This document shows, piece by piece, positions 10,429 through 30,020 of a DNA stretch of 43,201 nt. The translations under genes and the position numbers were made by a program. Within the stretch, counting starts at the first letter, position 1. The number at the start of each line of letters is the position of its first letter. Source of the DNA: Planctomycetaceae bacterium (GTDB lineage Bacteria > Planctomycetota > Planctomycetia > Planctomycetales > Planctomycetaceae); the NCBI GenBank assembly GCA_035623955.1, contig DASPSM010000016.1, positions 1 through 43,201 on the forward strand, given 5' to 3'. The notes under the pieces were generated by a model. It was not told the origin of the DNA, searched no databases, and saw nothing but the letters and a program-made list of their open reading frames with translations.

Positions 10429-11841
10429 TCAGGCCTTTGGACCAGCCGGCGACGGCTGAGTCTGGGGCGCTCCTTCCGGCTTCACGGCGGGCTCTTGCGG
10501 CACCGGCGGTTTGGCCGGCGGAATCACCTCCAGCGGAGGTTTGCCGGTTTCGTGCGGTTGCGGAACGGCTTCGGCCTGCGGCTTAGGCGGTCCAGCCGGG
10601 GCCGTGCCACCGCAAGTCGCACATCCGCCGCACGACGTGCACTCGGCCTGAGCACAGACGGTCACCGGGACCATGCGGCAGACTTCGTAGGCAACCTGTC
10701 GCGGCACACAGCGGGCCACCAGTCGCGTGCAGGTCACCGGGACAGTCTTGCACACGCAGCGCGGGATGCAGCGTTCGACCGTGTACGGGACCTGAATCGG
10801 CACGCAGTAGGCCACGCGGCAAGTGCGAGGCTCCTGGACCACGCGGTAAGTCGTCACCGGGACCTGACGCGTATGCTCTTCGCAAACGAGCCGGCAGGTC
10901 TGCACCGGCACGCGCTGCGTCATCTGCTCGCAAACATAGCTGCAACGCTGGACCGGGTACTTCTCGACGACTTCCTGGCAAACGGTGCGGCAAACCTGGT
11001 ACGGAATCTTCTCGCAAATCGTTCGCGGCACCATCCGGCAAACTTGAATCGGAACTTGCTGCCGCACGACTTCGCAGCGGTACGTGGTGCAGGGGACTTG
11101 TTCGCAGACGATCTTCGGGCACCAGACGCGACGGCACGTCGTGAAGCCGGGGCACTGCACCAGGCACGTCCGCCATCCACAGCACGGATCGCAGACGCAC
11201 TGCGGCACGACTGGACCCGGATGATAATCGGTCACCGTCTGCCAGCAGCCGCAATCGCGTTGAACCGTGTTGTAGACCGTCACCGGACGCATCACCGTGC
11301 AGCAGCGCTCGGTATTCACCGTCTCGACGACGCGATCCATAACGCAGCGCTGAACGGTTTGCTCATGCGTCTCGACCACAGGCCGATAAACCAGCCGGCG
11401 GCATTCGCGCTCTTCGGTCGTCCAGACTGGACGTTGGACGGTGTAGTGACACTCGCGGTACGAGGTCTCGATCACCGGCCGCTGGACGGTGTAGCGCTCT
11501 TCGCGGCAGCTCGTTTCGCAAATCGGCTTGCAGACGGTGTAGTGCTCGTCGCGATATCGAGTCTCCAGCGCCGTGCGATAACACGTCTCCTGATGGCGGT
11601 CGAACACGGTCTCGTACTCGGTTCGATTCACCGTGTACTGCTGCGGCTCGCAGACCGTGTCGTACACCGTTTGATAGCAGGTCTGCCGCTCGACCTTACA
11701 GGTGGTGTAACAACAGCTTGGTTGGCAACAAACTGCCGGGCAACAGCTGTAGCTGCATGCCCCGCAGTAGTAGCTGGCTTGGGCACTGCTCGTCGCAGTC
11801 AGTGCCAAAGTCAGCAGCGTTAAAACCCCGATGCTTCTCAT
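10429..11841 (-). CDS. Secreted cysteine-rich YTV-repeat protein with Pro-rich C-terminal tail
   Basis: Signal peptide MRSIGVLTLLTLALTATSSAQA. Five exact YTV tripeptides (QQYTVNR, EHYTVCK, ERYTVQR, CHYTVQR, VPYTVER) in degenerate repeats. Dozens of Cys, including CC and CxxC clusters. Tail PPKPQAEAVPQPHETGKPP. GGAG lies upstream of the ATG. Confidence 0.8.
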   Translation of the reverse strand: MRSIGVLTLLTLALTATSSAQASYYCGACSYSCCPAVCCQPSCCYTTCKVERQTCYQTVYDTVCEPQQYTVNRTEYETVFDRHQETCYRTALETRYRDEHYTVCKPICETSCREERYTVQRPVIETSYRECHYTVQRPVWTTEERECRRLVYRPVVETHEQTVQRCVMDRVVETVNTERCCTVMRPVTVYNTVQRDCGCWQTVTDYHPGPVVPQCVCDPCCGWRTCLVQCPGFTTCRRVWCPKIVCEQVPCTTYRCEVVRQQVPIQVCRMVPRTICEKIPYQVCRTVCQEVVEKYPVQRCSYVCEQMTQRVPVQTCRLVCEEHTRQVPVTTYRVVQEPRTCRVAYCVPIQVPYTVERCIPRCVCKTVPVTCTRLVARCVPRQVAYEVCRMVPVTVCAQAECTSCGGCATCGGTAPAGPPKPQAEAVPQPHETGKPPLEVIPPAKPPVPQEPAVKPEGAPQTQPSPAGPKA

Positions 11842-14319: not shown

Positions 14320-17207
14320 TGGGACGCCCCCGCCTTGGCGCTTCCGGACACGCTCTCCAGATTCAGGGGAGAATCGTCTGTCAACGGAGGCGGAGCTGGA
14401 GGCGCCGCCGGCTTGGGGGGGGCTACGGGCTTGGGAGGCGCTGCGGCGGGACGTGGCGCTGGTTGCTCTTTCGTCGGTTCAACCGGCCGCGCAGTGACCT
14501 CGGGAAGAAGCAACGGCTCTCCCGGATACGGGAATCGCGGCTCGGCGCTCGGGCCATCCAATTCAATTTCATGCAGCGAGATGCGTGTTGCCGGAGTGGC
14601 GGGCCAAAGCAGCGGCGGCGCCGTCCCGCTGACTGTCGCCGCTTTCGACTCGAAATTCCCGGGTGCGGCAGGCGCCGCTTGCGACGCGGGAAAAACTGCG
14701 GGTCGGCCGTTCGCAGGCTTCTGTCCGAGTTCCTTCTCGGGCGCAAAGGGGCGAGGGGGCGCCGCGTTGATGTTTTTCGGAGTCGGATGCGTGTTTTGCG
14801 CTGGGACAGTGGCCCGAGGAGCGACTGTCGGATGCAATTCGATCGGCGAAGGCAGCGGCGCTGAATCCTGCAAAGCCTGACGTCCCCGGATCGCCCCCAA
14901 CGCGACCAGCGCGGCCCGTTGCATGCGCGGCACGTCGTTGGTTGCCGCCGTTTCGAGACGTGGAACGGCGTCGATTGCCGCCGGGCCGAATTGAGCCAGG
15001 GAGAGCGCCGCCATGATCCGCACACGGGGATTCGCATCGTCAAGCGCATCGGTTAGCCGGACGATCGCAGTAGCATTGGCCGATGCGGCCGCGCAGCCGA
15101 GGGCCCCGGCCGCCGCCTGCCTGAGATCCGCATCGCTCGGATCGACCAGCAAATGCAAGAGGGTCTCGAGCGCCGAGCGGTCGGTCGGTTGAAGTTTCAA
15201 AAGCGCTTCGGCGATCCGCAGTTTCACCGCCTTGTTTGGCTCTTCACCCAGGAGTTGACGCAAGGCGGGCATCGCGGTGCGGGCGTCGGGCCCCACCGTG
15301 CTGATCCGCAGCGCGCCCAACAGTCGATGGCGCGGCTCCGCTTGCGAGAGAAGCTCGAGAGCGTCAAGCACCGGCCGAGTGTGGATCTCCCGAAACTCGG
15401 GATCCGTGAGGAGCGCGGATAGATTGAAAGCTGGTTTGGGCTCGGCCGGCTTTTCGCCTTCAAATTGGGAGGACCGCGGGGCTCCGTCGTGGCGCGATTC
15501 GGCAGCATCGTCTGATTCCGCTTCCGCGACAGATTCTGCGCGAACGTGTCTCGGGCGAAGCGGCCTCTCATCGGCTGCTTCTCGGCGAGGGCGTTCATCT
15601 TCGGTGCGGGCATCTTCGGTCGCAACTGAATTCGAAGCCGTGGCCGAACTCTGTGGCCGCGGCTCGCTCGGCATGTACGACTTCCAGCCGGTGGTCGGTG
15701 GATCGAAGCCCGGATCAGATTTAGCCGATTCCTTCTCGGGGCCAGTGCTCAGCAGATCCTCGAGCCGCGAACGGCCCGCTCCTCGATAACCGGGGATAAT
15801 GCGAATGTCGTCCGTTTGCTTCGCGAGCCTGGCCACGGCGTCGAGAATCGAACTCTCCTGGTCAGCTTGCAGCGGGACCGGTCCCGGCACCGATTTTGGC
15901 GAAAGGGGCAGTGAGGCCGGAGCCGCTGAAGGCAAATTGACGACTCCCGGTGGCTCCGGATTTGCCGCAACCGGCAGAGGACGCTCGCTGACTGCCGCGG
16001 GCGCGACGAATGCCGCAGGTTCCTGCTCGAACCGCAACGGAGCTTGTGGCTGCGCGGGCTCTCGTGACGCTGGCGGCAAGTCCGGCGCAGCGAGCGCTGG
16101 AATGTCGGGCAACTCTTTCGTGGAATCGACGACAACCTGCCGGGACAAGTCGAGCGGATGGGCCGGAGTGATCTGCTCCGCGTCAGCGGCTGGCGGCGTC
16201 ACGGTTTTCGGCGCTGTTTGATTCAATGCACCGAGATTCGATGCTTCCGAATTGGAAATGGTGTTCGGCGGCGGGGCGGTTGGCAGCGTCGCATTGAGCT
16301 GTGCTGGAATTGCTGGTGTCGCGGTCGATTGTGTTGTCAGGGTAGCCATCGGCGCCGGCTGGGCCGCCTGCCCGAAATCCGCTGTCTGCTCCGTTGCTGG
16401 CTTTGCGGCAGGTGCCGTCGCTGGCTCAGCAGACCGGTTTCCGGTCGGTTCGCCTTGAACGAGCGCGGCGGGCAAGGGCGTCACCGCGGCGCGCCATCCG
16501 CCGGACGACTGCTCGAGTTGCGGCGGCGCCGGAGTCACTTGCCTGTCTAGGACGAACACCGGTGTTTGCTGACCGGAAGTGACGCTTGATGGCCCGGCTG
16601 GAACCGTATTCGCCGCTTGGACGGCGTTCCCTGCCGGCCCCGCGTTGGACCGCGTCGGATCGGCGGGCTCGTCTTGCACGGTTGGCAGCGAAAAGCTGTC
16701 GCGGTCCGCGGTCTGGCTGATCGTATTTGTCGGCGTCCACGCGGGAGCCGCTGGCGGCGGGGCTTGCCCGCTTTGAAGCGGCAAGGCCGCCTGATACGGG
16801 CGGCTCGATGGCGTGAACGGCGCAGGGGACCTGTTGAACGTCGGAACTTGCTGAGACTGGCCCCGTATCAAGCTGCGACGCTGCAACTCGAGGTAGATTC
16901 GTTGCGCCTGCGCGGCTCGTCCCTGCTGCTCAAACAGCCGCGCCTCGGCCAAGAGTTGCTGATCGCTCTGATTCGCGAATTGGACGGTATCCGCGGGTGG
17001 TGCAGCAGCGACTAGGTTTCGGGGCGGATAGCCGCCGCCGTAGATTGTCTGCGCGGGCTGCGTGTACTGGGAAAACGCCGGAAGCGGAATCAGCCCACAA
17101 ACCGCGAGGCCCGCGAGTGAAGCCCAACAACAGGGAGTCCAGCGCAGATACCGCTTTAGCAGGGCCCTGCACCCCCCCTCGCAGTCGTTAACGGATTGCT
17201 GGATCAT
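14316..17207 (-). CDS. Large membrane-anchored HEAT-repeat protein with long Pro/Ala/Gln-rich disordered regions (963 aa)
   Basis: N-terminal hydrophobic anchor WASLAGLAVCGLIPLPAF. The HEAT-like block (AMPALRQLLGEEPNKAVKLRIAEALLKL..., LLVDPSDADLRQAAAGALG..., LDDANPRVRIMAALSLAQFG..., NDVPRMQRAALVALGAI) lies toward the C-terminal third. C-terminal tail PKPVAPPKPAAPPAPPP. Confidence 0.7.
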   Translation of the reverse strand: MIQQSVNDCEGGCRALLKRYLRWTPCCWASLAGLAVCGLIPLPAFSQYTQPAQTIYGGGYPPRNLVAAAPPADTVQFANQSDQQLLAEARLFEQQGRAAQAQRIYLELQRRSLIRGQSQQVPTFNRSPAPFTPSSRPYQAALPLQSGQAPPPAAPAWTPTNTISQTADRDSFSLPTVQDEPADPTRSNAGPAGNAVQAANTVPAGPSSVTSGQQTPVFVLDRQVTPAPPQLEQSSGGWRAAVTPLPAALVQGEPTGNRSAEPATAPAAKPATEQTADFGQAAQPAPMATLTTQSTATPAIPAQLNATLPTAPPPNTISNSEASNLGALNQTAPKTVTPPAADAEQITPAHPLDLSRQVVVDSTKELPDIPALAAPDLPPASREPAQPQAPLRFEQEPAAFVAPAAVSERPLPVAANPEPPGVVNLPSAAPASLPLSPKSVPGPVPLQADQESSILDAVARLAKQTDDIRIIPGYRGAGRSRLEDLLSTGPEKESAKSDPGFDPPTTGWKSYMPSEPRPQSSATASNSVATEDARTEDERPRREAADERPLRPRHVRAESVAEAESDDAAESRHDGAPRSSQFEGEKPAEPKPAFNLSALLTDPEFREIHTRPVLDALELLSQAEPRHRLLGALRISTVGPDARTAMPALRQLLGEEPNKAVKLRIAEALLKLQPTDRSALETLLHLLVDPSDADLRQAAAGALGCAAASANATAIVRLTDALDDANPRVRIMAALSLAQFGPAAIDAVPRLETAATNDVPRMQRAALVALGAIRGRQALQDSAPLPSPIELHPTVAPRATVPAQNTHPTPKNINAAPPRPFAPEKELGQKPANGRPAVFPASQAAPAAPGNFESKAATVSGTAPPLLWPATPATRISLHEIELDGPSAEPRFPYPGEPLLLPEVTARPVEPTKEQPAPRPAAAPPKPVAPPKPAAPPAPPPLTDDSPLNLESVSGSAKAGASQ

Positions 17208-17565
17208 CTCTTCCGCGCTTCCGAAGTCCGTACGATCAGAGCGGAATGTGGACGAACAATCGCCATTTCGTCCTTATCGGTTGTAACGGTCGAGAAAATT
17301 CAGTCATTTGGGTGAGTTGGACAAACTTTTCCGAAAATGACGTCTCTGCGGGCCCGCCTCGGTTCGTCATACGTTGATCGTTTCGGCAGAATCCGCCGGA
17401 CCCCCGAGCCCGGTTGGTGAGCGCGAACCCAACGATGGCCAATGAAAGCCGCGCGGCAATTTGTTACAAACGGCCGGAAGTCGGCTATTGACGGTTTGCT
17501 CGCCTCGATCGTGACCCGATGCTCCCGATGAGGCCGAAATTCTGAAGTGTTGTTGGGGGCAATCG

Positions 17566-18288
17566 GTGAGCCTGTTGTACCTGGTCCGCCACGGTCAAGC
17601 GTCGTTTTTCGGCGATAACTACGACCGCCTTTCGCCACTCGGTGAGCGGCAGGCGCGGCGCCTCGGTGAGTTCTTCGCGGCGCGGCGAGTGCAGTTCGAC
17701 GCGGTTTTCTCGGGCCCGGCCGAACGGCAGCGGCGCACAACCGAAATCGTCATCGAGACGATGGCGGCCGCCGGGTTGCCTTCTCCCACGCCGACAATCG
17801 TCGCCGGGCTGAACGAGCACGGCGGCGACAAACTGCTGAGCAAGCCGCACATGCACGCCGTTCTGGAGAAGTTTCCGGAATTGGGCGGCCTCGAACAGGC
17901 GTTTCGTGAAGCCCGCGAGCCCGAAGACGTGCAGAAGAGCTTTCAGAAGCTGTTCGAGGCGGCCGTCTTGCTTTGGACGCGAGGAGAGATCAACCCGCCG
18001 GGCATGGAATTGTGGGACGAATTTCATGCCCGCGCTCGCAAGGCCTTTGAGTCGATCACGTCGCATGGAGAGCGCGGCAGGACCACGCTGGCCGTCTCGT
18101 CCGTCGGGCCGATCTCGGTCGCCGTGCAGATGGCTCTGCAAACGTCGATTCCGGTCAGCCTCGATCTAGGTTGGCGGCTGCGAAACGCTTCAGTCACGAC
18201 ATTCATCTACACTCCAGGCAGGTTTAACCTCGACAGCTTTAATTCGCTCGCCCATCTGGCGGATCCGGCCGAGATAACGTACCGTTGA
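17566..18288 (+). CDS. Histidine phosphatase superfamily (phosphoglycerate-mutase-like) protein
   Basis: LYLVRHGQASF (catalytic RHG motif) followed by LSPLGERQARRLG. GTG start. Confidence 0.8.
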   Translation: MSLLYLVRHGQASFFGDNYDRLSPLGERQARRLGEFFAARRVQFDAVFSGPAERQRRTTEIVIETMAAAGLPSPTPTIVAGLNEHGGDKLLSKPHMHAVLEKFPELGGLEQAFREAREPEDVQKSFQKLFEAAVLLWTRGEINPPGMELWDEFHARARKAFESITSHGERGRTTLAVSSVGPISVAVQMALQTSIPVSLDLGWRLRNASVTTFIYTPGRFNLDSFNSLAHLADPAEITYR

Positions 18289-18300
18289 CTGGTCCATCGT

Positions 18301-18372
18301 GTAGGGCAGGCTGTGCCTGCCGAGTGCGAGTCAAGCGTCAATTTTATGCGCGGCAGGCACAGCCTGCCCTAC
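18301..18372. repeat. Perfect 22-bp inverted repeat (stem-loop, 28-nt loop)
   Basis: GTAGGGCAGGCTGTGCCTGCCG (18301-18322) and CGGCAGGCACAGCCTGCCCTAC (18351-18372) are exact reverse complements. The element sits 13 nt after the phosphatase stop and 40 nt before ATG 18412. Confidence 0.7.
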
Positions 18373-18411
18373 GCAATCGATCCGATTCCGATTGCTTTGG
18401 CGGGGGCTCTC

Positions 18412-19608
18412 ATGGATTTTTCAATTCCGCAACCGCTCCAAGAAACTCTCAAATCCGTTCGTAAGTTTTTGATTGACGAGGTCTATCCGCTCGAACGGGA
18501 TCTGTTGGCGCGCCCGTTTCGTGAGTTGCTTCCCGCACTGGCGGCCAGGCGAGACAAAGTCCGCGAGTTGGCGCTCTTCACGCCGCAAGTCAGCAAAGAG
18601 TACGGCGGAGCCGGGTTGAAATTCATGGAGCACGCCCTGTTGAGCGAAGAGCTGGGGCGCACGCCCTTGGGGCATTTCGTCTTTAACTGCCAGGCTCCCG
18701 ACGCCGGGAATATGGAAATCCTGCAGGAGTTCGGCACTCCCGAGCAGAAGGAGACGTGGCTCAAGCCGCTCGTCGCCGGCAAGATTCGCAGCTGCTTCTC
18801 GATGACCGAGCCGGGATTCCCCGGTTCCAATCCGGTGTGGATGAACACGACCGCCGTTCTCGAGGGCGATTCGTGGGTGATCAACGGGCGCAAGTGGTTC
18901 ACGTCGTCAGCCGACGGCGCTCGATTTGCCATTGCGATGGTCGTCACCAACCCCCAGGCTGACCCGCACGCCCGCGCGAGCCAGATCATCGTCCCCTGCG
19001 ATACGCCGGGTTTCAAAATCGTGCGGAACATTTCGGTGATGGGACATGCCGGCGACGACTGGCCCAGTCACAGCGAGGTTTCGTACGAGAACGTCCGCGT
19101 GCCGAAGAAGAATCTGCTCGGCCGCCAGGGGGCGGGCTTCGAGATCGCGCAGGCGCGGCTGGGGCCGGGCCGAATCCATCACTGCATGCGCTGGATGGGG
19201 ATCTGCGAGCGATCGTTCGATCTTTTGTGTGAGCGAGCAGCCCGCCGCGACCTGGCGCCCGACGACAAGCTCGGCACGCGGCAAACGATTCAAAATTGGA
19301 TCGCCGAAAGCCGGGCCGAGATCAATGCCGCGCGTCTGATGGTGCTGAAGGCGGCTTGGACGATCGATCGCGAGGGAACCAAGGCGGCCCGCGACGAGAT
19401 CTCGCTGATCAAATTCTTCGCGGCCGGCGTGTTGATGAAGGTCATCGATCGGGCGCTGCAGGCCCATGGAGCGTTGGGCATGACCGACGACACGATCCTC
19501 GCCTATTACTACCGGCACGAACGGGCTGCGCGGATCTACGATGGTCCCGACGAAGTCCACAAGAGCACCGTCGCGCGCCGGATTTTGCGCGGATATGGGC
19601 TGGCGTAA
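18412..19608 (+). CDS. Acyl-CoA dehydrogenase, ACAD10/ACAD11 (FadE2-like) clade
   Basis: FSMTEPGFPGSNP, WVINGRKWFTS, RLGPGRIHHCMRWMG, RIYDGPDEVH. Start moved to ATG 18412 (MDFSIPQPLQETL...) because the ORF-track start 18313 lies inside the inverted repeat. Confidence 0.9.
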   Translation: MDFSIPQPLQETLKSVRKFLIDEVYPLERDLLARPFRELLPALAARRDKVRELALFTPQVSKEYGGAGLKFMEHALLSEELGRTPLGHFVFNCQAPDAGNMEILQEFGTPEQKETWLKPLVAGKIRSCFSMTEPGFPGSNPVWMNTTAVLEGDSWVINGRKWFTSSADGARFAIAMVVTNPQADPHARASQIIVPCDTPGFKIVRNISVMGHAGDDWPSHSEVSYENVRVPKKNLLGRQGAGFEIAQARLGPGRIHHCMRWMGICERSFDLLCERAARRDLAPDDKLGTRQTIQNWIAESRAEINAARLMVLKAAWTIDREGTKAARDEISLIKFFAAGVLMKVIDRALQAHGALGMTDDTILAYYYRHERAARIYDGPDEVHKSTVARRILRGYGLA

Positions 19609-19729
19609 CGCCCGGCGAGCGTCGGGCGTAAGCCCGATGGTGCTTAGTCCTCTGGTCTTTCAATCTTTTCGCGTCAAAACGAAATCCAGGAGAAGCACCC
19701 GCCAGCTCACGCTGGCGGCTCGCCAAGCG

Positions 19730-20812
19730 ATGACCGAGCGCACCACGACGTTCGCCGATGCTTCCAGCCCAGTGCGCAAGGGCGAAGAGCTCGACGCAGC
19801 TCGCCTGGGGGCTTATCTGTCCGAGCAGCTGGGCCAGTGCGACGTCCCACTCGAGATCGAGCAGTTCCCGCAAGGGTTTTCCAACCTCACTTACCTGCTG
19901 CGATTCGGAAAAGACGAATACGTTCTGCGGCGTCCGCCGTTCGGCAACACGGTCAAGTCCGCGCACGACATGGGACGGGAATTCCACGTCCTCTCGAAGT
20001 TGTCGCGGGTCTACGAACTGGCGCCGAAGCCCCTCCTGTACTGCACGGACGAAGCCGTGCTCGGCGCCCCGTTTTACGTGATGGAGCGCCGCCGCGGCGT
20101 GATCCTGCGCCGCAAGCTGCCGAAGAACTTTCACCCGGAACCCGAAACGTTTCGCCGCCTGGGAACGTCGTTCATCGACAACCTTGCGCGCCTGCACGCG
20201 CTCGATTACAGTGCCGCCGGCCTTGGCGATTTGGGAAAGCCCGAGGGGTACGTCGAGCGGCAAGTCACCGGTTGGATCGGCCGGTACGAGAAGGCCAAGA
20301 CCGATGACTGGCCGCAAATGGACGACGTCGCGAAGTGGCTGGTCGAAAACCGTCCACCCGAATCGGGCGCCGCGCTGATCCATAACGACTACAAGTTCGA
20401 TAACGTCGTGCTCGACCCCAACGATTTGACGAGAATTGTCGGTGTGCTCGATTGGGAAATGTGCACGCTGGGGGATCCGCTGATGGATCTGGGTTGCACG
20501 CTGGCCTATTGGATTCAGGCCGACGACACCGAGGCGCTCAAGTACTTTGTCCCCGGGCCGACGTTTTTGCCCGGCAACCTGACGCGAAAAGAGTTACTCG
20601 ATCGCTACGCCGAGACGTCCGGCCGCGACCTGGGACATGTCCTTTTCTATTACTGCTACGGCCTCTACAAATTGGCCGTCATTATCCAGCAAATCTATGC
20701 CCGCTTTGCCCGTGGGTTTACACAGGACCAGAGGTTTGCCGAGATGAATCAGCAAGTCGGCAGCTTAAGCCGCACGGCCGCCCGGGCGATTGCAATCGGC
20801 GGCGTTTCTTGA
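19730..20812 (+). CDS. APH-type phosphotransferase (aminoglycoside phosphotransferase/ACAD10-11 kinase-domain family)
   Basis: Kinase catalytic loop LIHNDYKFDNVVLD and VLDWEMCTLGDPLMDLG. N-terminus VRKGEELDAARLGAYL is typical of this family. Start placed at ATG 19730 rather than ORF-track 19541. Confidence 0.85.
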   Translation: MTERTTTFADASSPVRKGEELDAARLGAYLSEQLGQCDVPLEIEQFPQGFSNLTYLLRFGKDEYVLRRPPFGNTVKSAHDMGREFHVLSKLSRVYELAPKPLLYCTDEAVLGAPFYVMERRRGVILRRKLPKNFHPEPETFRRLGTSFIDNLARLHALDYSAAGLGDLGKPEGYVERQVTGWIGRYEKAKTDDWPQMDDVAKWLVENRPPESGAALIHNDYKFDNVVLDPNDLTRIVGVLDWEMCTLGDPLMDLGCTLAYWIQADDTEALKYFVPGPTFLPGNLTRKELLDRYAETSGRDLGHVLFYYCYGLYKLAVIIQQIYARFARGFTQDQRFAEMNQQVGSLSRTAARAIAIGGVS

Positions 20813-21051
20813 CACAATTCACGGCGGGACCTTGACGCCGCTGGGCTGAACAAACGGTTTTTCTGGGCTTTTTGTCAGCGTCTGCGCCGTTTACGTTGTT
20901 TTTGCGATCCGATTACAAATCGTGAGGGGTACGTTCCGGGCGTTTCGCGGCGCGCTGCCGCTGGGACGAGATCCGTTGAGCGCGGTGCTTGGGGCACCCC
21001 GTTTCCGGACGATCGGAACGTTCGCTTCGGGTGGAAAGGTGTGACTGGCCC

Positions 21052-22977
21052 ATGAATCCGCAAATCCGCGAGTTGGACGAGCACGCGACCGAAAACGAGG
21101 CGACCTTCGTCGAAACCGCCCTCAAGCTGGGAGGGGCGAGCGAGGAAGAAGCAAAGAAGACCGGAGCGCTCGACCGAGCGGACGAGCAGATCGAGGACCT
21201 GTTCGCGCCAAAATATCAGACGGCCGGCAGCCCGGCGCATCGGGCCGTCTGGGATAAAGAATTTCCGATCGACATTTTCGTCGGACAGGCGAAGCCCGCC
21301 AGCCCCGCTGCCCAGACCGTGATGGACAAGTCGATCGAGGTCGTCAAACGCCGGCGCGACGCGGGCACGCTCTTCGACGAGAAAAACAAGATCCGCCAGG
21401 AATCGATCGACGAACTGGCGAAAGTCGGCTACTGGGGCCTGTTGGTCGATCCGAAATACGGCGGGAGCGGCTGCAACTTCGGCGCGTTCGCGCGGTTCCT
21501 GGTGAAGATGGGAGCCACCGATCCGACGACTGCCGGCCTGGCTTCGGTCCACGGCTGCATCGGCGCCGTCGACCCGGTCCGCACCTTCGGCAGCCCCGAG
21601 CAGAAGCAAGAATACCTCCCCAAGCTGGCCAGCGGCGAACGGGTTTCGGCCTTTGCGCTGACCGAGCCGGCCGCCGGCTCCGACCTCACAGCGCTTCGCA
21701 CCAAAGCCGAGCTCGTCGGCGACTACTACGTCGTCAACGGCGAGAAGCTGTTCATCACGAACGTGGTGCCGGGGCGGACCGTCGGTCTCGTCTGCCTGAT
21801 CAATAACAAGCCGGCCGTGTTGATTGCTGACCTGCCGGACAAAGAGGACGAGACCTTCCAACTGAAGAAGTACGGTCTGCATGCCCTCAAGCACACCTAC
21901 AACCAGGGCATGATCTTCAAGAACTTCAAGGTTCCCAAGAAGAACCTGCTGCAGCCGACCCGCGGCGACGGGCTGACCGTCGGCTACCACGGCCTCAACC
22001 GCGGCCGCGTGGCCGTGTGCGCGACTGGTGCGGCGGGCATGCGGCTGATGCTGGCCAACATGCTTCCCTGGGCCAAGTTCCGCAAGACTTATGGCGAGCA
22101 GATCGTGAAGCGCGAACTGGTTCGTCGGCGGATCGGCCGACTGGCCGCCCTGATCGTCGGCTGCGACGCGCTGATCGACTGGTGCTCGTGGCTCTTGGAC
22201 GAGGGCTACCGCGGCGAAATGGAATGCACGGTCGCCAAGATCTTTGGCAGCGAGTCGCTCAAGGAAGCGTCGATCGACCTGTTCATGAAGACGCACGGCG
22301 GCCGTTCGTTCCTGCACGGCCACATCTTCGGCGACAACGTGCACGAGTACCTGGCTCCGTGCATTTACGAGGGCGAAGGCGAGATGCTCTGCATGGGCTT
22401 CTTCAAGTCGCTCATCAAGGAGCACGGCCACAAGTACTACGAGCCGATCGGCAAGGCGCTCTACGCCGCCGGCATCAAGCAGCCCAACATGGCCAACCCG
22501 GCCCACATGTTGAAGCTGGCCCCGGCCGCGATGCCGTGGTTGAAGTGGCGGGCGAACGAAATGGTGGCGGGCCCCGTGCGGGCGAAGCTGCCGTCGATGC
22601 CGCCGTCGCTCGCGGAGTTGGCGCAGTTCGCCGCCGACAATCTGCAGGGGAGTCGGCTGGAGGTCGACCGCCTGATGCAGAAGAACCAGCTCAAGCTGGC
22701 CGACCGTCAGTGCACGATGGTCGAACTGTCGCAGCGAATTCAGAGCATGATCGTGATGCTCACGACCGCTCTCTGGGCGGCCAGGCAGTCCGACGAGCTG
22801 GTGAAGACCGCGGCGATCGTGCTCGGTCGCGATATTCGTCGCCAGCTCACCGGCAAGCGTCCGACGGCCGAGGACTTCCGCCTGATGACGAAACTCGGTT
22901 CGGACATTGCCGAGGGAGGCTTCAAGGCGCTCGCGGGCGTCGAAGAGGTCGAACTCTTGATGCCCTACACGCCTTGA
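21052..22977 (+). CDS. Large acyl-CoA dehydrogenase (FadE-like, about 640 aa)
   Basis: GYWGLLVDPKYGGSG, AFALTEPAAGSDL, YVVNGEKLFITN, TVAKIFGSE, IYEGEGEM. Start placed at ATG 21052 (MNPQIRELDE). Confidence 0.85.
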   Translation: MNPQIRELDEHATENEATFVETALKLGGASEEEAKKTGALDRADEQIEDLFAPKYQTAGSPAHRAVWDKEFPIDIFVGQAKPASPAAQTVMDKSIEVVKRRRDAGTLFDEKNKIRQESIDELAKVGYWGLLVDPKYGGSGCNFGAFARFLVKMGATDPTTAGLASVHGCIGAVDPVRTFGSPEQKQEYLPKLASGERVSAFALTEPAAGSDLTALRTKAELVGDYYVVNGEKLFITNVVPGRTVGLVCLINNKPAVLIADLPDKEDETFQLKKYGLHALKHTYNQGMIFKNFKVPKKNLLQPTRGDGLTVGYHGLNRGRVAVCATGAAGMRLMLANMLPWAKFRKTYGEQIVKRELVRRRIGRLAALIVGCDALIDWCSWLLDEGYRGEMECTVAKIFGSESLKEASIDLFMKTHGGRSFLHGHIFGDNVHEYLAPCIYEGEGEMLCMGFFKSLIKEHGHKYYEPIGKALYAAGIKQPNMANPAHMLKLAPAAMPWLKWRANEMVAGPVRAKLPSMPPSLAELAQFAADNLQGSRLEVDRLMQKNQLKLADRQCTMVELSQRIQSMIVMLTTALWAARQSDELVKTAAIVLGRDIRRQLTGKRPTAEDFRLMTKLGSDIAEGGFKALAGVEEVELLMPYTP

Positions 22978-23007
22978 GCGTGCGGGCGGCCGCCCGGCTG
23001 ACAACTG

Positions 23008-23039
23008 ACGGAGTCCGAGCTATTCGGCTCGGGCTCCGT
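23008..23039 (+). terminator. 13-bp stem hairpin between FadE-like and fadB (terminator/attenuator-like, no U-tract)
   Basis: ACGGAGTCCGAGC-tattcg-GCTCGGGCTCCGT pairs over 13 bp with one G-U. A 14-bp perfect palindrome CGGGCGGCCGCCCG at 22983-22996 precedes it. Confidence 0.3.
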
Positions 23040-23092
23040 TCCCCATCATCGCATCCCACGAACTCCGCACGGCTCCCCTTTCTGGAGCAACA

Positions 23093-25264
23093 ATGGCCAC
23101 CGCGTTTCGGCTGGAAGAACTCGACGGGCCGATCGCCCTCTTGACGTTCGACGTCCCCGAGCAGAGCGTCAACACGTTCTCTGGGCCGGTGATGACTGAA
23201 CTCAGCCAGGTCGTCGATCAGCTCGCGAAACGCAAGGACCTGCGCGGATTGCTGCTCAAGAGCGGCAAAAAGGGACAGTTCATCGCGGGGGCCGATCTCA
23301 AGGAGATGGGATCGCTCGCCTACGCGACGAAGGAACAAGTTCTTCCTGCGCTGCGAGGCGGACACGAGGTCTTCGGCCGCGTCAGCCGGCTTCCATTCCC
23401 GACCGTCGCGCTCATCGATGGCAACTGCATGGGAGGTGGAACGGAGATCACGCTGGCGATGGATTACCGGCTTGCCGCCGACAACCCGACGACAAAGATC
23501 GGCCTGCCGGAGGTCAAAGTCGGCATCATTCCTGGCTGGGGCGGAACGCAGCGCCTGCCGCGCGTCGTCGGCATCCAGCAAGCCATTCAGATGATCACTT
23601 CAGGCGATCCGATCGACGCCGGGCAGGCTGCGAAGTGTGGCCTGGTGTTCGATGCCGTGCCACCGGAGCGACTGATCGAAGAGGGGCGCCGCCTGATCGA
23701 CTTCGCGCAGCAGTCCGGTGAGTGGAAGGAGTTGCGGCGAAAGAAGGAGCAGCCGCTGGGCCTTAGCGACGACCAGTTGAACTTTGCGTTTGGCGTTTCC
23801 GAAGGGGCCGTGCTGGGCGCCACGAAGGGGCAGTACCCGGCGCCGCTCGCCGCACTGCGGGCGATGAAAGAAGGAGTCAATCGGCCTCTTTCCGAGGGGA
23901 TCGAGATCGAGCTGCGAGAGTCGCAGGGTGTTGTGGGGACGCCGACGTCCGCCGCGCTGATCGGCGTCTTCTTCATGCAGAATCTGCTGGCTCGCGACCG
24001 GGGCGTGACCGATCCCAACGTCAAGGCCCGTCCCGTGAATCGGGTCGGTGTGCTCGGCGCGGGACAGATGGGCGCGGGCATCGCGACGGCCCACGCTCGG
24101 AGCGCGATCCCCACGGCGATGGTCGACGTGGACGACGCGCGGATCGCCGACGGCATGCGCCGCGCGGCCGAAGTGGTGACGAGTCGGATCAAAATCGGTC
24201 GCGCGACGACGGCCGATCTGCAAGGCCTGCTTTCATCGCTGAGCGCGTCGACCTCGCACCAGGTTTTTTCTGATTGCGACGTCGTGATCGAAGCGGTCAC
24301 GGAAAACGAAGAGCTGAAAACGGCCCTTTACCGCCAGCTGGCGACCGTCCTCAAGAAGGACGCGATCCTGGCGACGAACACGTCCACGATCTCGATCACG
24401 CGAATGGCCGAGGCCTGGCCCAACCCGACCCGGTTCATCGGCATGCATTTCTTCCTGCCCGTCGACCGGATGCAGCTCGTCGAAGTCATCCGCGGCAAGC
24501 GCACGAGCGACGAAACGGTCGCGACGATCGTCGAGCTGGCCAAACGCATCAAGAAGACGCCGATCGTCGTCAATGACTGCGCCGGCTTTCTCGTTAACCG
24601 GATTTTACTTCCCTACATGACCGAAGCTCTCGCGCTTCTGTTGGAGGGAGCATCAATGGACGCGATCGACCGCGTGGCGACGAAATTCGGCATGCCGGTC
24701 GGCCCGATTGCCCTGCAGGACATGGTGGGTCTCGATACGTCGTGCTTTGCCGGCAAAGTGCTGGCGGCGGCCTACAGTGACCGGGCCCTCAAGATCACGC
24801 TCCTTGACGATCTGATCGCGGCCAAGCGGCTCGGCAAGAAATCGGGAGCCGGATTCCGCAAATTCGCGGGCACGAAAGGCAAGCCGGCGGACGACCCGGC
24901 GTTCGCTCCGTTTTTGGAAAAGCATCGCACCGCGAAACGCGAAGTCTCGAACCAGGAAATCGAAGACCGGCTGTTCCTCTCGATGCTCTTGGAGGCCGTG
25001 CGGACGCTCGAAGAGGGAATCGTTCGGGAGCCCGCGCACGTCGATATGGGGTTGATTCTGGGTGTTGGCTTCCCGCCGTTTCGCGGCGGGATCCTCCGCT
25101 GGTGCGACGCGGTGGGGGCGGGCCCGCTCGTGGACCGCGCCTCGAAATACACGTCCTTGGGCAAACGGTTCGAGCCCAGCCCGATGCTCGTCGACATGGC
25201 GAAAACAGGCAAGAAGTTTTATCCGCGACCGGCGGCGAGCAGTTCCCCGACGAAGTCCGTTTAA
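23093..25264 (+). CDS. fadB: Multifunctional fatty-acid oxidation protein: enoyl-CoA hydratase / 3-hydroxyacyl-CoA dehydrogenase (FadB/FadJ type)
   Basis: N-terminal crotonase region ([26 protein letters not shown]). Rossmann motif [15 protein letters not shown]-terminal 3HCDH region. SD GGAG 6 nt before the ATG. Confidence 0.9.
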
Positions 25265-25318
25265 GCGAGATGCAAGCCCACACTATGCTGCGCGATTCCC
25301 GAACTCCAACGGCTGACT

Positions 25319-25347
25319 CCCTCACCCCCTGCCCCTCTCCCGCAAGG
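25319..25347. repeat. GC-rich hairpin repeat, copy A left part (interrupted by the MITE)
   Basis: CCCTCACCCCCTGCCCCTCTCCCGCAAGG is 28/29 identical to the reverse complement of 25575-25603. Its right half GGAGAGGGG resumes after the MITE at about 25456. Confidence 0.6.
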
Positions 25348-25446
25348 AGCTTTGCCCAAAAACGGGGACTGACCCCCTACCGGAAGGGCAAACCAGCACT
25401 CCAGCCGCAACGGGTCAGGGGTCTGTCCCCGTTTTGGGGCAAAGCC
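25348..25446. mobile_element. MITE-like element, copy 2 (99 bp), nested in a GC-rich hairpin repeat
   Basis: Same element as 10199-10295, differing by a few substitutions and a 2-nt indel. Flanked by perfect 9-bp direct repeats CCCGCAAGG (25339-25347 and 25447-25455). Confidence 0.7.
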
Positions 25447-25574
25447 CCCGCAAGGGGAGAGGGGAGAAGGATTGCGGGTGAAGCGGAGAGATTTTTCGCA
25501 CGAGTCCTTGACGATCTGCACCTAAACACAGTTTTGTGCAAAGGGGCAAATGCGAACGCTCTTCCCCCCTCTCC

Positions 25575-25603
25575 CCTTGCGGGAGAGGGGCTGGGGGTGA
25601 GGG
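25575..25603. repeat. GC-rich hairpin repeat, copy B (inverted relative to copy A)
   Basis: CCTTGCGGGAGAGGGGCTGGGGGTGAGGG, part of the intact hairpin CCCCTCTCCCCTTGCGGGAGAGGGG (25567-25591 region). Confidence 0.6.
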
Positions 25604-25654
25604 GTGTCTGCCCGCTGCACGATGCAGTCTTTTAGCATAGATCGGAGCAAGACG

Positions 25655-26815
25655 ATGAGACACGCGGTGGTGATCGACGCGGTTCGCACGCCGATCGGGA
25701 AGGCCTCGTCGGACAAGGGGATTTACCGCGACGTTCGCGCCGAAGAGCTGTCGGCCCACGTGATCGACACGCTCGTCAAGCGAACGGGAATCGACCCGCA
25801 TCTGATCGACGACGTGCGTTGGGGCTGCGTGCAACAGCAGGGGGAGCAGGGTTTCGACGTCGCGCGGACGGTGGCGCTCATGGCCGGCCTGCCAATCGAG
25901 GCGGGGGGCGTGACGATCAATCGCAACTGCGCGTCGAGCCTGCAGGCGATCAACGACGCGGCGATGAACGTGGCTGCGCATTGCGAAGACGTGCAGATTG
26001 CAGGCGGAGTGGAGCACATGGACCACGTCCCGATGAACAAGGACTACAATCCCCCTCCCGGCCTCTTTTTCAAGCACAGCGAGGCCATCATGAACATGGG
26101 CCTCACCGCCGAATACATGGCGATGAAGTACCAGATTCCGCGACAGAAGCAGGACGAGTTCTCGGTCCGCAGCCATCAACTCGCGGCCCAGGCGACGACG
26201 GAGGGCGGTTTCAAGTCCGAAGTGGTGCCAACCTGGGGACGCGACGAAGAGGGACGCAAAGTCCAGATCACGCAGGACCAGGGGATCCGCTTCGACTGCT
26301 CGCTCGACGGGCTGGCGAAGCTGCCGCCGGCGTTTAATCCGGCCAGCGGCTCGGTGACGGCCGGCAATAGCTCGCAGGTGAGCGTCGGCGCGACGGCGGT
26401 CCTCGTGATGTCCGAGCAAAAGGCGCAAGAGCTGGGACTCAAACCGATGGCCAGGATCCGCGCGATGGCTGTCGCCGGCGTCGATCCGTGCGAAATGGGC
26501 ATCGGCCCCGTCCCGGCGATTCACAAAGTTCTCCGACGATCCGGGCTTACGCTCGCCGACTTGGGGAGCATCGAAATCAACGAGGCGTTCGCCGTGCAGG
26601 TGCTTTCGTGCCTGCGGCTGTTGGGAACCGACGAAAAACGAGTCAACCGCCGTGGGGGCGCGATCGCGTTGGGCCACCCGCTCGGAGCCAGCGGCGCGCG
26701 GATTGTGACGACGCTTTTGCACCGGATGCGCGACGAAGGGTCGAAGTACGGCCTGGCAACCATGTGCGTCGGCCAGGGGCAGGGCGTGGCAACCGTTTTC
26801 GAAGCATGCCAGTGA
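25655..26815 (+). CDS. fadA: Acetyl-CoA C-acyltransferase (3-ketoacyl-CoA thiolase)
   Basis: NRNCASSLQAI (nucleophilic Cys), NEAFAVQ, GGAIALGHPLGASGAR, MCVGQGQG. SD GGAG 7 nt before ATG 25655. ORF-track start 25604 lies inside the repeat. Confidence 0.9.
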   Translation: MRHAVVIDAVRTPIGKASSDKGIYRDVRAEELSAHVIDTLVKRTGIDPHLIDDVRWGCVQQQGEQGFDVARTVALMAGLPIEAGGVTINRNCASSLQAINDAAMNVAAHCEDVQIAGGVEHMDHVPMNKDYNPPPGLFFKHSEAIMNMGLTAEYMAMKYQIPRQKQDEFSVRSHQLAAQATTEGGFKSEVVPTWGRDEEGRKVQITQDQGIRFDCSLDGLAKLPPAFNPASGSVTAGNSSQVSVGATAVLVMSEQKAQELGLKPMARIRAMAVAGVDPCEMGIGPVPAIHKVLRRSGLTLADLGSIEINEAFAVQVLSCLRLLGTDEKRVNRRGGAIALGHPLGASGARIVTTLLHRMRDEGSKYGLATMCVGQGQGVATVFEACQ

Positions 26816-26861
26816 GGTTTGCGCTTTAGCAGCTGCGATGCGAGAGGGGAGGTCCGGATTC

Positions 26862-28532
26862 ATGCCATTTTCTAGTCTCTCCGACATGCATCGCAGCCAG
26901 TGCCAGCTGCTGGGCCCGCGAACCGCGATTCGATTCAAACGCGACGGCCTGTACCACGACGTCAGCTGGGCCGAGTACCGCTGGATGGCCGACCGCGCCG
27001 CCGCCGGCCTGATCGAGCTGGGGGTGAATCCGGGCGATCGCGTCGCCATTCTGTCCGAGAACCGATACGAGTGGTTGATTGCCGACGAGGCGATCCTTTC
27101 GACCGGCGGAGCCGATGTCCCCCTTCACGCTCCGCTGGCTCCGCGACAGGTCGAATACCAGGTCGGTCACAGCCAGTCGCGGGGCATTATCGTCAGCGGC
27201 CAACAGCAGGCCGACAAAGTCTTTCACGTGCTCGAGGCGCTGCCCAATCTCGAATTTCTGATCTCCTTCGATCCAGTCGTTTCGCCGATCGACAAAATCC
27301 GCGTGCTGTCGTGGAACGGGCTGATGCAGCGGGGCAGCCGCGCGCACAAGCAGGAAGAGATTCTTCGCCGTGAATCGAAAATCACCGGCAAAGACCTGGC
27401 GACCATCATTTACACCAGCGGCACGACGGGGAACCCCAAAGGTGTGATGCTCACGCACGGCAATCTGCTGGAAAACGCGAAGACGACGCTCGAAATCGGG
27501 CCCCGCGATCCAGCCGACGTCCTGCTGAGCTGGCTGCCGTACAGCCATATCTACGCACGCACTTGCGATCTGTACGTGCCGGCGATCGCAGGCTCGAGCG
27601 TGGCGCTGGCCGAGTCGATGGACACTTTGATCGTCAACCTTGCCGAGACCTGGCCGACCTGGCTGACTTCGGTCCCGCGGTTTTACGAAAAAGTGTGGGC
27701 GCGCGTCGAACAGATGCCGCCCGAGCAGCGTTCGACCACGCTCAAGAAGATTTTCGGTCCGCGAATTCGTCAGCTTTCGTCGGGCGGCGCTCCGCTGCCG
27801 AGGCACGTCTGCCAGGGCTTCTTTGACGCGGGGCTCCCGCTGTTGGAAGGCTACGGGCTCACCGAGACCTCGCCCGTCGTCAGCTTCAACAAGCTCGACG
27901 ATTACCGCATCGGGACCGTGGGCAAGGCGATTCCCGGCGTCGAAATCAAGATTGCGCCCGACGGCGAGATTCTCGTCCGCGGTTCGAACGTCATGCAGGG
28001 TTACTGGCGCAATCCCGAGGCGACGGCCGAGGTCATCGAAAAAGACGGGTGGTTCCACACCGGAGACGTGGGTCACCTCGATGACGAGGGTTATCTCACG
28101 ATCACGGACCGAAAGAAGGATCTGATCATTACGTCGGCCGGCAAGAACATCGCTCCCAGCGAGCTCGAGCGGCTGCTGGTCAGCGACATCTATATCGACC
28201 AGGCGGTGGTTTATGGCGACGGGCGGAGGTTCGTCAGCGCCCTGATCGTCCCGAATTTCGAGCAGCTCCGCGCGAAGGCCGCCGAACTCAATTGCAAGCT
28301 CGAGTCGTCGCCCGAAGGATTTTTGAAGACGCCATGTCTCAACGAGTTTTTCGCGCAGCGGATCGATGCGGTGATGCAAGAGGTCAGCAATCCCGAGCGG
28401 GTCAAGAAGTTTCTCGTTCTCGATCGCCCGTTTCAGCTCGACGCCGACGAGCTGACGGCGACCTTGAAAGTCCGACGCAACCACATCATTCGTAAGTTTG
28501 AGCACCAATTGGCTGCTCTCTACGATGACTAG
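26862..28532 (+). CDS. Long-chain-fatty-acid--CoA ligase (FadD/FAA-like AMP-binding enzyme)
   Basis: IIYTSGTTGNPKGVMLTHGN, EGYGLTETSP, GWFHTGDVGHLDDEGYLTITDRKKDLIITSAGKNIAP. GGGGAGG lies 9 nt before ATG 26862. ATG 26838 is an alternative start. Confidence 0.85.
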   Translation: MPFSSLSDMHRSQCQLLGPRTAIRFKRDGLYHDVSWAEYRWMADRAAAGLIELGVNPGDRVAILSENRYEWLIADEAILSTGGADVPLHAPLAPRQVEYQVGHSQSRGIIVSGQQQADKVFHVLEALPNLEFLISFDPVVSPIDKIRVLSWNGLMQRGSRAHKQEEILRRESKITGKDLATIIYTSGTTGNPKGVMLTHGNLLENAKTTLEIGPRDPADVLLSWLPYSHIYARTCDLYVPAIAGSSVALAESMDTLIVNLAETWPTWLTSVPRFYEKVWARVEQMPPEQRSTTLKKIFGPRIRQLSSGGAPLPRHVCQGFFDAGLPLLEGYGLTETSPVVSFNKLDDYRIGTVGKAIPGVEIKIAPDGEILVRGSNVMQGYWRNPEATAEVIEKDGWFHTGDVGHLDDEGYLTITDRKKDLIITSAGKNIAPSELERLLVSDIYIDQAVVYGDGRRFVSALIVPNFEQLRAKAAELNCKLESSPEGFLKTPCLNEFFAQRIDAVMQEVSNPERVKKFLVLDRPFQLDADELTATLKVRRNHIIRKFEHQLAALYDD

Positions 28533-28580
28533 CCCAGAGATAAGTAACCCCACCGGGGTCGACGATCACGACGGTCGCTG

Positions 28581-29729: not shown

Positions 29730-29819
29730 TCGCTTCGCTGCCAACCGTGGCTTTCGTGACGGGCTTCAGAGCCGGTAAATCGGGGAGCCACAAGCCCGTT
29801 GGTGCTCCGCTTCGGCACG

Positions 29820-29848
29820 TTGACACCCAACTCGGGCAGTTCTAGCAT
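29820..29848 (+). promoter_or_regulatory. Candidate sigma70-like promoter for the 30.0-38.9 kb operon
   Basis: TTGACA (29820-29825), 17-nt spacer, TAGCAT (29843-29848). This would give a leader of about 165 nt before ATG 30021. Motif match only. Confidence 0.35.
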
Positions 29849-30020
29849 GGAAGAGAGGCGTTGCCACGTCGGCGCTGCCGGTCGCAACCCTCTTCGAGGC
29901 AGCAACTTACGACGGGCCATTTCCTCTCAGCCAATCCCTGGGAATCGCGCCGCCACTTTTGCGCCGCTGGTTTGTTTATTTATTGGTGAAAATCCGCGTT
30001 GAGAGCGGAATCGAGAATCC

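Follow-up and report, generated by a model that had tools for sequence, protein, structure and literature searches.

Do three neighbouring genes on a planctomycete contig, which encode a phosphatase-like protein, an acyl-CoA dehydrogenase (ACAD) and a kinase, make up an unfused bacterial counterpart of the animal ACAD10 and ACAD11 enzymes and, if so, what place does the phosphatase have among them? The stretch of DNA analysed here, which we call the window, comprises 43,201 nucleotides of Planctomycetaceae bacterium (assembly GCA_035623955.1, contig DASPSM010000016.1, positions 1 to 43,201 of the forward strand) and has a GC content of about 62-65%. A first-pass annotation of its letters had proposed that the trio feeds 4-hydroxy acids into adjacent beta-oxidation genes. 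We report a computational follow-up of that proposal, on the strength of which we consider it probable that the operon is a beta-oxidation cluster with an already known entry module for 4-hydroxy acids, including a phosphatase-like partner. Judged by their sequences, the kinase and ACAD most likely act as a pair, converting 4-hydroxyacyl-CoA to 4-phosphoacyl-CoA and this to a 2-enoyl-CoA for the genes downstream.

Three plus-strand open reading frames (ORFs) adjoin one another at 17566-18288, 18313-19608 and 19541-20812, just as the annotation had described, and every motif that it quoted is present in the translations. The corresponding genes are as follows.

17566-18288, plus strand: atypical histidine-phosphatase-superfamily (branch 1) protein, 240 amino acids, GTG start, accessory partner of the kinase
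18412-19608, plus strand: ACAD10/ACAD11/LvaC-type acyl-CoA dehydrogenase-fold enzyme, predicted to eliminate phosphate from 4-phosphoacyl-CoA; longest ORF from 18313
19730-20812, plus strand: ACAD10/11-type APH-fold kinase, predicted 4-hydroxyacyl-CoA 4-kinase; longest ORF from 19541

The true starts of the second and third genes are probably later than those of the longest ORFs. The true start of the ACAD is probably the ATG at 18412, because homologues and the PDB entry 4hr3 align from residue 33-34, and that of the kinase is probably the ATG at 19730 (MTERTTTF), 121 nucleotides past the ACAD stop. With these starts the gap between phosphatase and ACAD is 123 nucleotides and that between ACAD and kinase 121 nucleotides.

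The acyl-CoA dehydrogenase

The ACAD has the three-domain fold of its family, with the Pfam entries Acyl-CoA_dh_N, Acyl-CoA_dh_M and Acyl-CoA_dh_1 all above cut-off (2e-36, 6.6e-17 and 2.8e-16), and its translation contains both RLGPGRIHHCMRW and DGPDEVH. Against all PDB sequences its best four matches are human and mouse ACAD11 and 4hr3 of Mycobacterium abscessus, at 292-299 bits; the best ordinary ACAD in the PDB, a short-chain ACAD (SCAD), scores 160 bits, compared to 299 for human ACAD11. Work on mouse ACAD11 has identified D753 as the catalytic base and R626, H634 and R637 as the residues that are likely to recognise the phosphate (PMC12440821). An alignment to 8v3u and 8v3v reveals that all four are kept in the window ACAD. 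Its RLGPGRIHHCMR helix is the same as that of ACAD11 at the Arg/His/Arg positions, and IYDGPDEVH of the window pairs with LADGPDEVH of ACAD11, a register that is confirmed by the D753N mutant chain. The catalytic Asp within DGPDEVH stands where the usual ACADs have Glu.

A quick maximum-likelihood tree was built from 94 ACAD segments, namely that of the window, ACADs lying beside kinases or phosphatases in the fetched loci, the ACAD parts of kinase fusions (one from a eukaryote) and ordinary paralogues; one row, own_longACAD_win, was set aside as out of frame and the conclusions are drawn from the remaining 93. The 31 ordinary ACADs form a single clade with a support of 100 in the Shimodaira-Hasegawa-like approximate likelihood ratio test (SH-aLRT), and every kinase-linked ACAD, including that of the window, lies outside it. 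Neither the Arg/His/Arg motif nor DGPDEVH occurs in any of the 31, whereas both are found in 48 of the 62 kinase-linked ACADs; the other 14 match one of the two strict patterns or neither, the examples seen being either truncated or variant at a single residue. The membership of the window ACAD in the ACAD10/11/LvaC-type group, which the annotation had proposed from two motifs, is supported by its scores, by the diagnostic residues and by the tree, and it does not group with the ordinary ACADs. Within the tree it falls into a bacterial subclade, 'type A'. The 'type B' sequences comprise the one from a eukaryote (P0201), acidobacterial ACADs encoded on the strand opposite to that of the kinase, as well as the ACAD of a Pseudomaricurvus locus (L070), which adjoins a kinase of another clade than the ACAD10-like one.

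The kinase

The third gene product matches the Pfam family APH (2.9e-49) and has the IHNDYKFDN catalytic loop (HxDxKxDN), the DWE metal motif in LDWEM and, in VLRRPP, an Arg that replaces the beta3 Lys. These motifs line up with those of ACAD11 and of the PDB entry 9o56, and the features match the description of this kinase group in a 2026 preprint (10.1101/2025.09.10.675409). It is 9o56 that gives the best PDB match (1.1e-114, 387 bits, about 60% identity over nearly the whole length); from its molecule name, its length and the text of the preprint, this entry is probably the structure of the 'ACAD10 kinase' of Caldalkalibacillus thermarum. Next in score are the kinase domain of ACAD11 (about 160 bits) and 3dxp (155 bits), and the other APH-like chains of the PDB score 40.7, 27.6 and 22.6 bits, the last of these being a macrolide phosphotransferase. 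The scores support the earlier assignment of the kinase to the ACAD10/11-type APH group, as opposed to the antibiotic kinases. More narrowly, it belongs to the ACAD10-like clade, while kinases of the other clade (3dxp and those of fetched gamma- and betaproteobacterial loci) are about 32-35% identical to it.

Linkage and fusion of kinase and ACAD in other bacteria

The association of kinase and ACAD was followed through 201 sampled genomes of Acidobacteriota. A kinase match is present in 40 of them; in 31 of the 40 the kinase is of the ACAD10-like clade, defined here as at least 46% identity to the window kinase. An ACAD of the ACAD10/11 type lies within about 2 kb of the kinase in 24 of 30 fetched acidobacterial loci. 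Ten neighbours of acidobacterial kinases were also scanned, of which four are short-chain dehydrogenases/reductases (SDRs) and the rest unrelated, with no HAD protein among them. Over a wider set, beta-oxidation genes occur within the fetched flanks of 19 of 59 kinase loci; in the window they lie directly downstream.

A search for longer proteins revealed dozens of bacterial ACAD-kinase fusions. In most of these (P0124-P0160 and others) the ACAD is N-terminal and the kinase C-terminal, which is the reverse of the order in animal ACAD10/11 and therefore implies independent fusion events. The kinase is also found fused to SDR, zinc-dependent alcohol dehydrogenase, acyl-CoA ligase, thiolase, family III CoA-transferase and SGL/strictosidine-synthase-like (lactonase-type) domains; these partners are the ones that would be needed to turn gamma-lactones, 4-oxo acids or 4-hydroxy acids into acyl-CoA. 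No glycerolipid enzyme is present among the 85 kinase fusion proteins listed. Linkage in the sampled loci and fusion in the wider search together support the view that kinase and ACAD are co-conserved in bacteria, often as a single polypeptide.

Two of the fusion types merit a separate description. Genuine kinase-SDR fusions were found at two acidobacterial loci (L104, 5547-7370, and L105, 5391-7214, both on the minus strand), each encoding a 608-residue protein made up of an ACAD10-type kinase and a C-terminal SDR, followed directly by an ACAD10/11-type ACAD; by analogy with LvaA plus LvaD of the levulinate (lva) operon, this arrangement suggests a coupling of 4-oxoacyl-CoA reduction to phosphorylation. 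In Geodermatophilus and Blastococcus the kinase is joined to the SGL/strictosidine-synthase-like beta-propeller (P0173-P0179), which would fit the opening of gamma-lactones upstream of 4-hydroxy acid activation. Long open frames around acidobacterial and Variovorax kinases had been candidates for fusions; on inspection most of them proved to be high-GC read-through artefacts, and the two kinase-SDR fusions alone were genuine.

The phosphatase-like protein and its active site

The product of the first gene matches the Pfam family His_Phos_1 (3.9e-21) and carries an LVRHGQ motif. Its AlphaFold2 model has a predicted local distance difference test (pLDDT) score of 92.8, and the top Foldseek matches of this model are PspA (4ij5), HFP (9mmh), PGAM5 and PhoE (1h2e), with probability 1.00, E values of about 1e-11 and template modelling (TM) scores of 0.66-0.77. 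The family was sampled as 85 locus-encoded members, including the domain of a fusion protein described below, and 148 cluster representatives at no more than 50% identity. Neither set shows any variation at R8, H9, R54 or E84, the residues of the RHG nucleophile motif, of the Arg pair and of the Glu proton donor. The canonical second His of the pocket (xHGG) is replaced, by V180 in the window protein, where a profile alignment to 9mmh pairs S-V-G with G-H-G. The position holds G, V, A or S in the 85 members and G, A, V, L or T in the 148 representatives (S, L and T being rare), never His, and an invariant Ser precedes it throughout the family. A helical insert at about residues 87-150 is also specific to the family.

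These residues suggest a protein that is most likely catalytically live although non-canonical, with the phospho-histidine intermediate of the superfamily kept, since the nucleophile His, both Arg and the Glu proton donor do not vary. The first-pass annotation had described it as a PGAM-type phosphatase; the protein lacks the second catalytic His of its superfamily.

Linkage of phosphatase and kinase

The phosphatase family is large (1247 clusters at 50% identity, E <= 1e-30), and its members, from metagenome-assembled genomes (MAGs) and other genomes, carry the labels of Planctomycetota, Acidobacteriota, Verrucomicrobiota, Myxococcota, Thermodesulfobacteriota, Hydrogenedentota, Nitrospirota and Pseudomonadota. 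We examined the 80 best genomic loci, of which 35 are of Comamonadaceae type and 45 are not. In 33 of the 45, spread over several phyla, the phosphatase is next to a kinase of this type, so the adjacency within the trio is not a matter of chance. Broken down, the 45 loci include 25 with both the kinase and the ACAD10/11-type ACAD nearby, eight with the kinase only, four with the ACAD only and eight with neither; three of the four ACAD-only loci are cut by contig ends, as is one of the eight without either gene, and another of those eight has a divergent APH gene next door. The adjacency of phosphatase and kinase is tighter than that of phosphatase and ACAD. Several gene orders are found: phosphatase-ACAD-kinase, as in the window; ACAD at a distance before phosphatase-kinase, in Pirellulales; phosphatase-kinase, the ACAD being encoded on the other strand, in Acidobacteriota; and kinase-phosphatase, where the phosphatase is divergent. 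From this variety of orders it follows that the linkage was more than once either maintained or formed anew. The acidobacterial sample agrees, as the kinase is present in eight of nine genomes with the phosphatase and in 32 of 192 without it (Fisher p ~1e-5, a value for related genomes that are not independent).

In one protein the kinase and the phosphatase-like domain are physically joined. P0180, of 847 residues, is an SDR-kinase-phosphatase fusion; its C-terminal 219 residues can be aligned to the window protein from one end to the other and keep the family-specific motifs and the C-terminal TYR. A word-index search for longer phosphatase-containing proteins had found none, which is weak evidence, and in an exhaustive profile search 148 of the best 150 matches stand alone; the remaining two, P0279 (478 residues) and P0297 (331 residues), carry extra sequence that has no BLASTP match to the seven cluster proteins of the window.

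Two further loci show other surroundings of the phosphatase homologue. In a Nitrospirales MAG (L014, 8001-9788, plus strand) the gene after it encodes a divergent APH-family kinase (Pfam 3e-16), which tblastn with the window kinase at E <= 1e-10 missed, and no ACAD10/11-type gene lies within 8 kb. In an uncultured proteobacterium (L037, 8001-10298, plus strand) the genes after it encode a HAD-family hydrolase and an SDR, and the locus contains neither a kinase nor an ACAD10/11-type gene.

The beta-oxidation genes and the surrounding window

The four genes that follow the trio run in the same direction and bear out the earlier statement that beta-oxidation genes are adjacent.

20989-22977, plus strand: long ordinary acyl-CoA dehydrogenase, 662 amino acids, with Pfam ACAD N, M and C domains; 24% identical to the ACAD10/11-type gene
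23093-25264, plus strand: FadB-like enoyl-CoA hydratase / 3-hydroxyacyl-CoA dehydrogenase (Pfam ECH_1, 3HCDH_N, 3HCDH)
25604-26815, plus strand: thiolase (Pfam Thiolase_N, Thiolase_C)
26838-28532, plus strand: acyl-CoA ligase (Pfam AMP-binding, 1e-77, and AMP-binding_C_3)

Upstream of the trio lies a divergent HEAT-repeat gene. The genome itself has one gene for the phosphatase, one for the kinase and one for an ACAD10/11-type ACAD, together with four ordinary ACAD paralogues. The matches of the three proteins to NCBIfam are sub-threshold, so that none receives a curated equivalog name, and a scan for promoters and terminators over 17000-30200 gave no excess over the shuffled expectation.

A 382-residue ORF (28581-29729, plus strand; GC at third codon positions 0.85) begins 48 nucleotides past the acyl-CoA ligase. 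It has no Pfam match at E <= 0.001, and its GYSLGELAAL resembles the GxSxG active-site motif of FabD-type acyltransferases; this ORF, too, may belong to the operon. Elsewhere in the window are a YTV-repeat protein, with a Pfam domain typical of planctomycetes (10429-11841, minus strand), and a 1204-residue FHA and PQQ-like beta-propeller protein (30974-34588, plus strand), neither of which has a relation to the trio. The YTV domain, along with nearest homologues labelled Planctomycetaceae, is evidence that the contig belongs to a MAG of the Planctomycetota.

Proposed pathway and alternatives

In the pathway that we propose, the ligase of the cluster would make 4-hydroxyacyl-CoA, the kinase would phosphorylate its 4-hydroxyl group with ATP to give 4-phosphoacyl-CoA, and the ACAD-fold enzyme, by means of its catalytic Asp and of a phosphate pocket made up of Arg, His and Arg, would eliminate the phosphate, leaving a 2-enoyl-CoA that FadB and the thiolase would then process. 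The phosphatase-like protein could serve as a safety valve or repair enzyme, acting on 4-phosphoacyl-CoA or on the free 4-phospho acid. The chemistry of kinase and ACAD has been demonstrated for unfused bacterial proteins, LvaA and LvaC of Pseudomonas putida and their Burkholderia pseudomallei orthologues (PMC11342911, PMC12440821), and the latter replace the ACAD10 domains in vitro (PMC11342911). It is this published biochemistry, taken together with the linkage of ACAD and kinase, the fusion partners and the beta-oxidation neighbours, that supports 4-hydroxyacyl-CoA as the substrate. Family membership, diagnostic residues and gene linkage are matters of observation; from them we infer substrates, activities and the role of the phosphatase.

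Several points weigh against this proposal. Close prokaryotic homologues of the window kinase are reported to phosphorylate 1-O-alkylglycerol in vitro (10.1101/2025.09.10.675409), which makes the physiological substrate of the kinase less certain. A search for the kinase in a sample of 150 further genomes of Planctomycetota found none, so that this phylum gives no evidence of conservation; the module is for this reason patchy in the phylum and was probably acquired horizontally. A kinase and a phosphatase side by side would need some control if a futile cycle is to be prevented, and the phosphatase-like protein, without the second His of the pocket, may not be a conventional phosphatase. Of the 31 acidobacterial loci with an ACAD10-like kinase, moreover, only four have the phosphatase adjacent and 27 lack it, and in the 35 Comamonadaceae-type loci the phosphatase homologue stands alone and unlinked; the one such genome that was checked, Variovorax G155, has a kinase-ACAD pair at another site of the 4.2-Mb contig that carries the homologue. 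The pathway thus does without the phosphatase, which is a real and conserved partner of the kinase but an optional one. The pairings of phosphatase with kinase (33 of 45 loci) and of kinase with ACAD (24 of 30) stand, but all three genes together are not co-conserved throughout, given the few acidobacterial kinase loci with the phosphatase.

The phosphatase-like protein might be a non-catalytic or regulatory subunit of the kinase and do in this way what LvaB, a small LvaA-binding protein, does in P. putida. In Pseudomonas citronellolis a histidine-phosphatase gene occupies the place that lvaB has in P. putida and lvaB itself is not present (PMC6692424). The absence of the second catalytic His, the gaps in the window (24, 121 and 176 nucleotides), which are too small for an lvaB-sized gene, and the physical proximity to the kinase implied by the P0180 fusion point the same way. 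Pseudoenzymes, however, usually lose their nucleophile, and here R8, H9, R54 and E84 are invariant in all 85 and 148 family members; most kinases of this clade, furthermore, have no such partner and those of ACAD10/11 work alone (PMC12440821). We consider a subunit of this kind unlikely, if the least unlikely of the alternatives. It is less probable that ether lipids are the substrates, as has been proposed for ACAD10, with the kinase phosphorylating alkylglycerol and the phosphatase acting on alkyl(acetyl)glycerophosphate; the latter would then be a functional analogue of the HAD domain of ACAD10. Several prokaryotic homologues of the ACAD10 kinase, among them the C. thermarum enzyme that is probably 9o56, are reported to phosphorylate chimyl alcohol, and it is the phosphatase and kinase domains of ACAD10, not its dehydrogenase domain, that are needed for ether-lipid salvage (10.1101/2025.09.10.675409); over the loci compared, the phosphatase is also more tightly adjacent to the kinase than to the ACAD. 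Genomic context nevertheless disfavours this explanation, as the kinase is co-located or fused mainly with ACADs and acyl-CoA enzymes, with no glycerolipid enzyme in the fusions listed, and in the window lies inside a beta-oxidation operon. The in vitro activity of some homologues depends, besides, on acetyl-CoA (10.1101/2025.09.10.675409), which fits an acyl-CoA site.

Slightly more doubtful still is a strict orthologue of the lva operon, dedicated to short 4-oxo or 4-hydroxy C5 acids. The kinase and ACAD chemistry would be that of LvaA and LvaC (PMC12440821) and an acyl-CoA ligase is at hand, but no large ORF of the window has a Pfam match to an SDR of the LvaD type, the long ACAD, FadB and thiolase are a general set for fatty-acid oxidation, and the kinase is of the ACAD10-like clade, from which those of the other clade are remote. 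That the trio consists of unrelated neighbours, an ordinary ACAD, a kinase for antibiotics or other small molecules and a housekeeping phosphatase, could be read from the generic family names that Pfam and NCBIfam offer; it is contradicted by the diagnostic residues, the PDB scores, the tree, the adjacency in several phyla and the multiple gene fusions, and we give it hardly any weight.

Returning to the entry module for 4-hydroxy acids, the kinase and ACAD are in themselves a planctomycete example of established pathway chemistry and would have ordinary annotation value, in databases that label such genes merely 'phosphotransferase' and 'acyl-CoA dehydrogenase'. Their separation into two proteins is not new, as LvaA, LvaC and the B. 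pseudomallei orthologues were characterised as separate proteins before (PMC12440821, PMC11342911). The value of the locus lies in the phosphatase-like partner, a member of a large family with a conserved, non-canonical active site that is linked or fused to a 4-hydroxyacyl-CoA kinase in several phyla. We tentatively suggest, aware that the odds are against it, that with this family bacteria might have a third enzyme dedicated to the catabolism of 4-hydroxy acids. It could be, for instance, a phosphatase or phosphotransferase with an editing function, which would remove 4-phosphoacyl-CoA or 4-phospho acids that have strayed from the pathway and so release trapped CoA. Its recruitment to the kinase would in that case be independent of the HAD domain of animal ACAD10 and convergent with it. 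Its substrate would tell whether the pathway needs a step of proofreading or repair, a question that bears on the disputed phosphatase domain of human ACAD10.

Comparison with known systems

Mammalian ACAD11 and ACAD10 (PDB 8v3u, 8v3v and 2wbi) share with the window the families of kinase and ACAD, the catalytic residues, the phosphate-recognition helix and the predicted sequence of reactions. They differ in that the window proteins are separate and are encoded in the order phosphatase-ACAD-kinase, not (HAD-)kinase-ACAD. Unlike ACAD10, the trio includes no HAD domain, and a non-homologous protein of histidine-phosphatase fold is encoded instead. The proposed replacement of one by the other holds as an analogy only, since the HAD domain of ACAD10 has negligible activity on 4-phosphoacyl-CoA and restrains the kinase (PMC11342911), and the 2026 preprint assigns this domain and the kinase to ether-lipid metabolism (10.1101/2025.09.10.675409).

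The lva operon of P. putida KT2440, with LvaA (kinase), LvaB, LvaC (ACAD), LvaD (SDR) and LvaE (ligase), has an unfused kinase, a phosphate-eliminating ACAD and a ligase, as does the window; LvaA, LvaB and LvaC were compared by their published descriptions. The window differs from it in the lack of an adh_short (LvaD-type SDR) match among its large ORFs and in its gaps of 24-176 nucleotides, which leave no room for a gene of the size of lvaB. Closer with respect to the phosphatase is the lva-type cluster of P. citronellolis LA18T, in which a gene of the histidine-phosphatase family lies between the kinase and ACAD genes (PMC6692424), so that the presence of such a gene is not new either. The 2019 report of that cluster suggested that the enzyme, encoded between the lvaA and lvaC homologues, removes phosphate from 4-phosphovaleryl-CoA, and called for functional analysis (PMC6692424). 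That cluster differs in its LvaA-type kinase, its LvaD SDR, its LvaR regulator and its substrate levulinate, and its phosphatase of 218 residues was compared by description only.

Among single proteins, the C. thermarum kinase (probably 9o56) is the closest solved relative of the window kinase and shares with it the beta3 Arg, the DWE motif and the catalytic loop (HNDYK in the window, HYDYK in 9o56); it was reported as a 1-O-alkylglycerol kinase in vitro (10.1101/2025.09.10.675409), whereas the context in the window points to acyl-CoA substrates. The branch 1 phosphatases PspA, HFP, PhoE and PGAM5 have in common with the window protein the fold, the RHG nucleophile, the Arg pair and the Glu donor, and its family is set apart from them by the loss of the second pocket His and by the additional helical insert.

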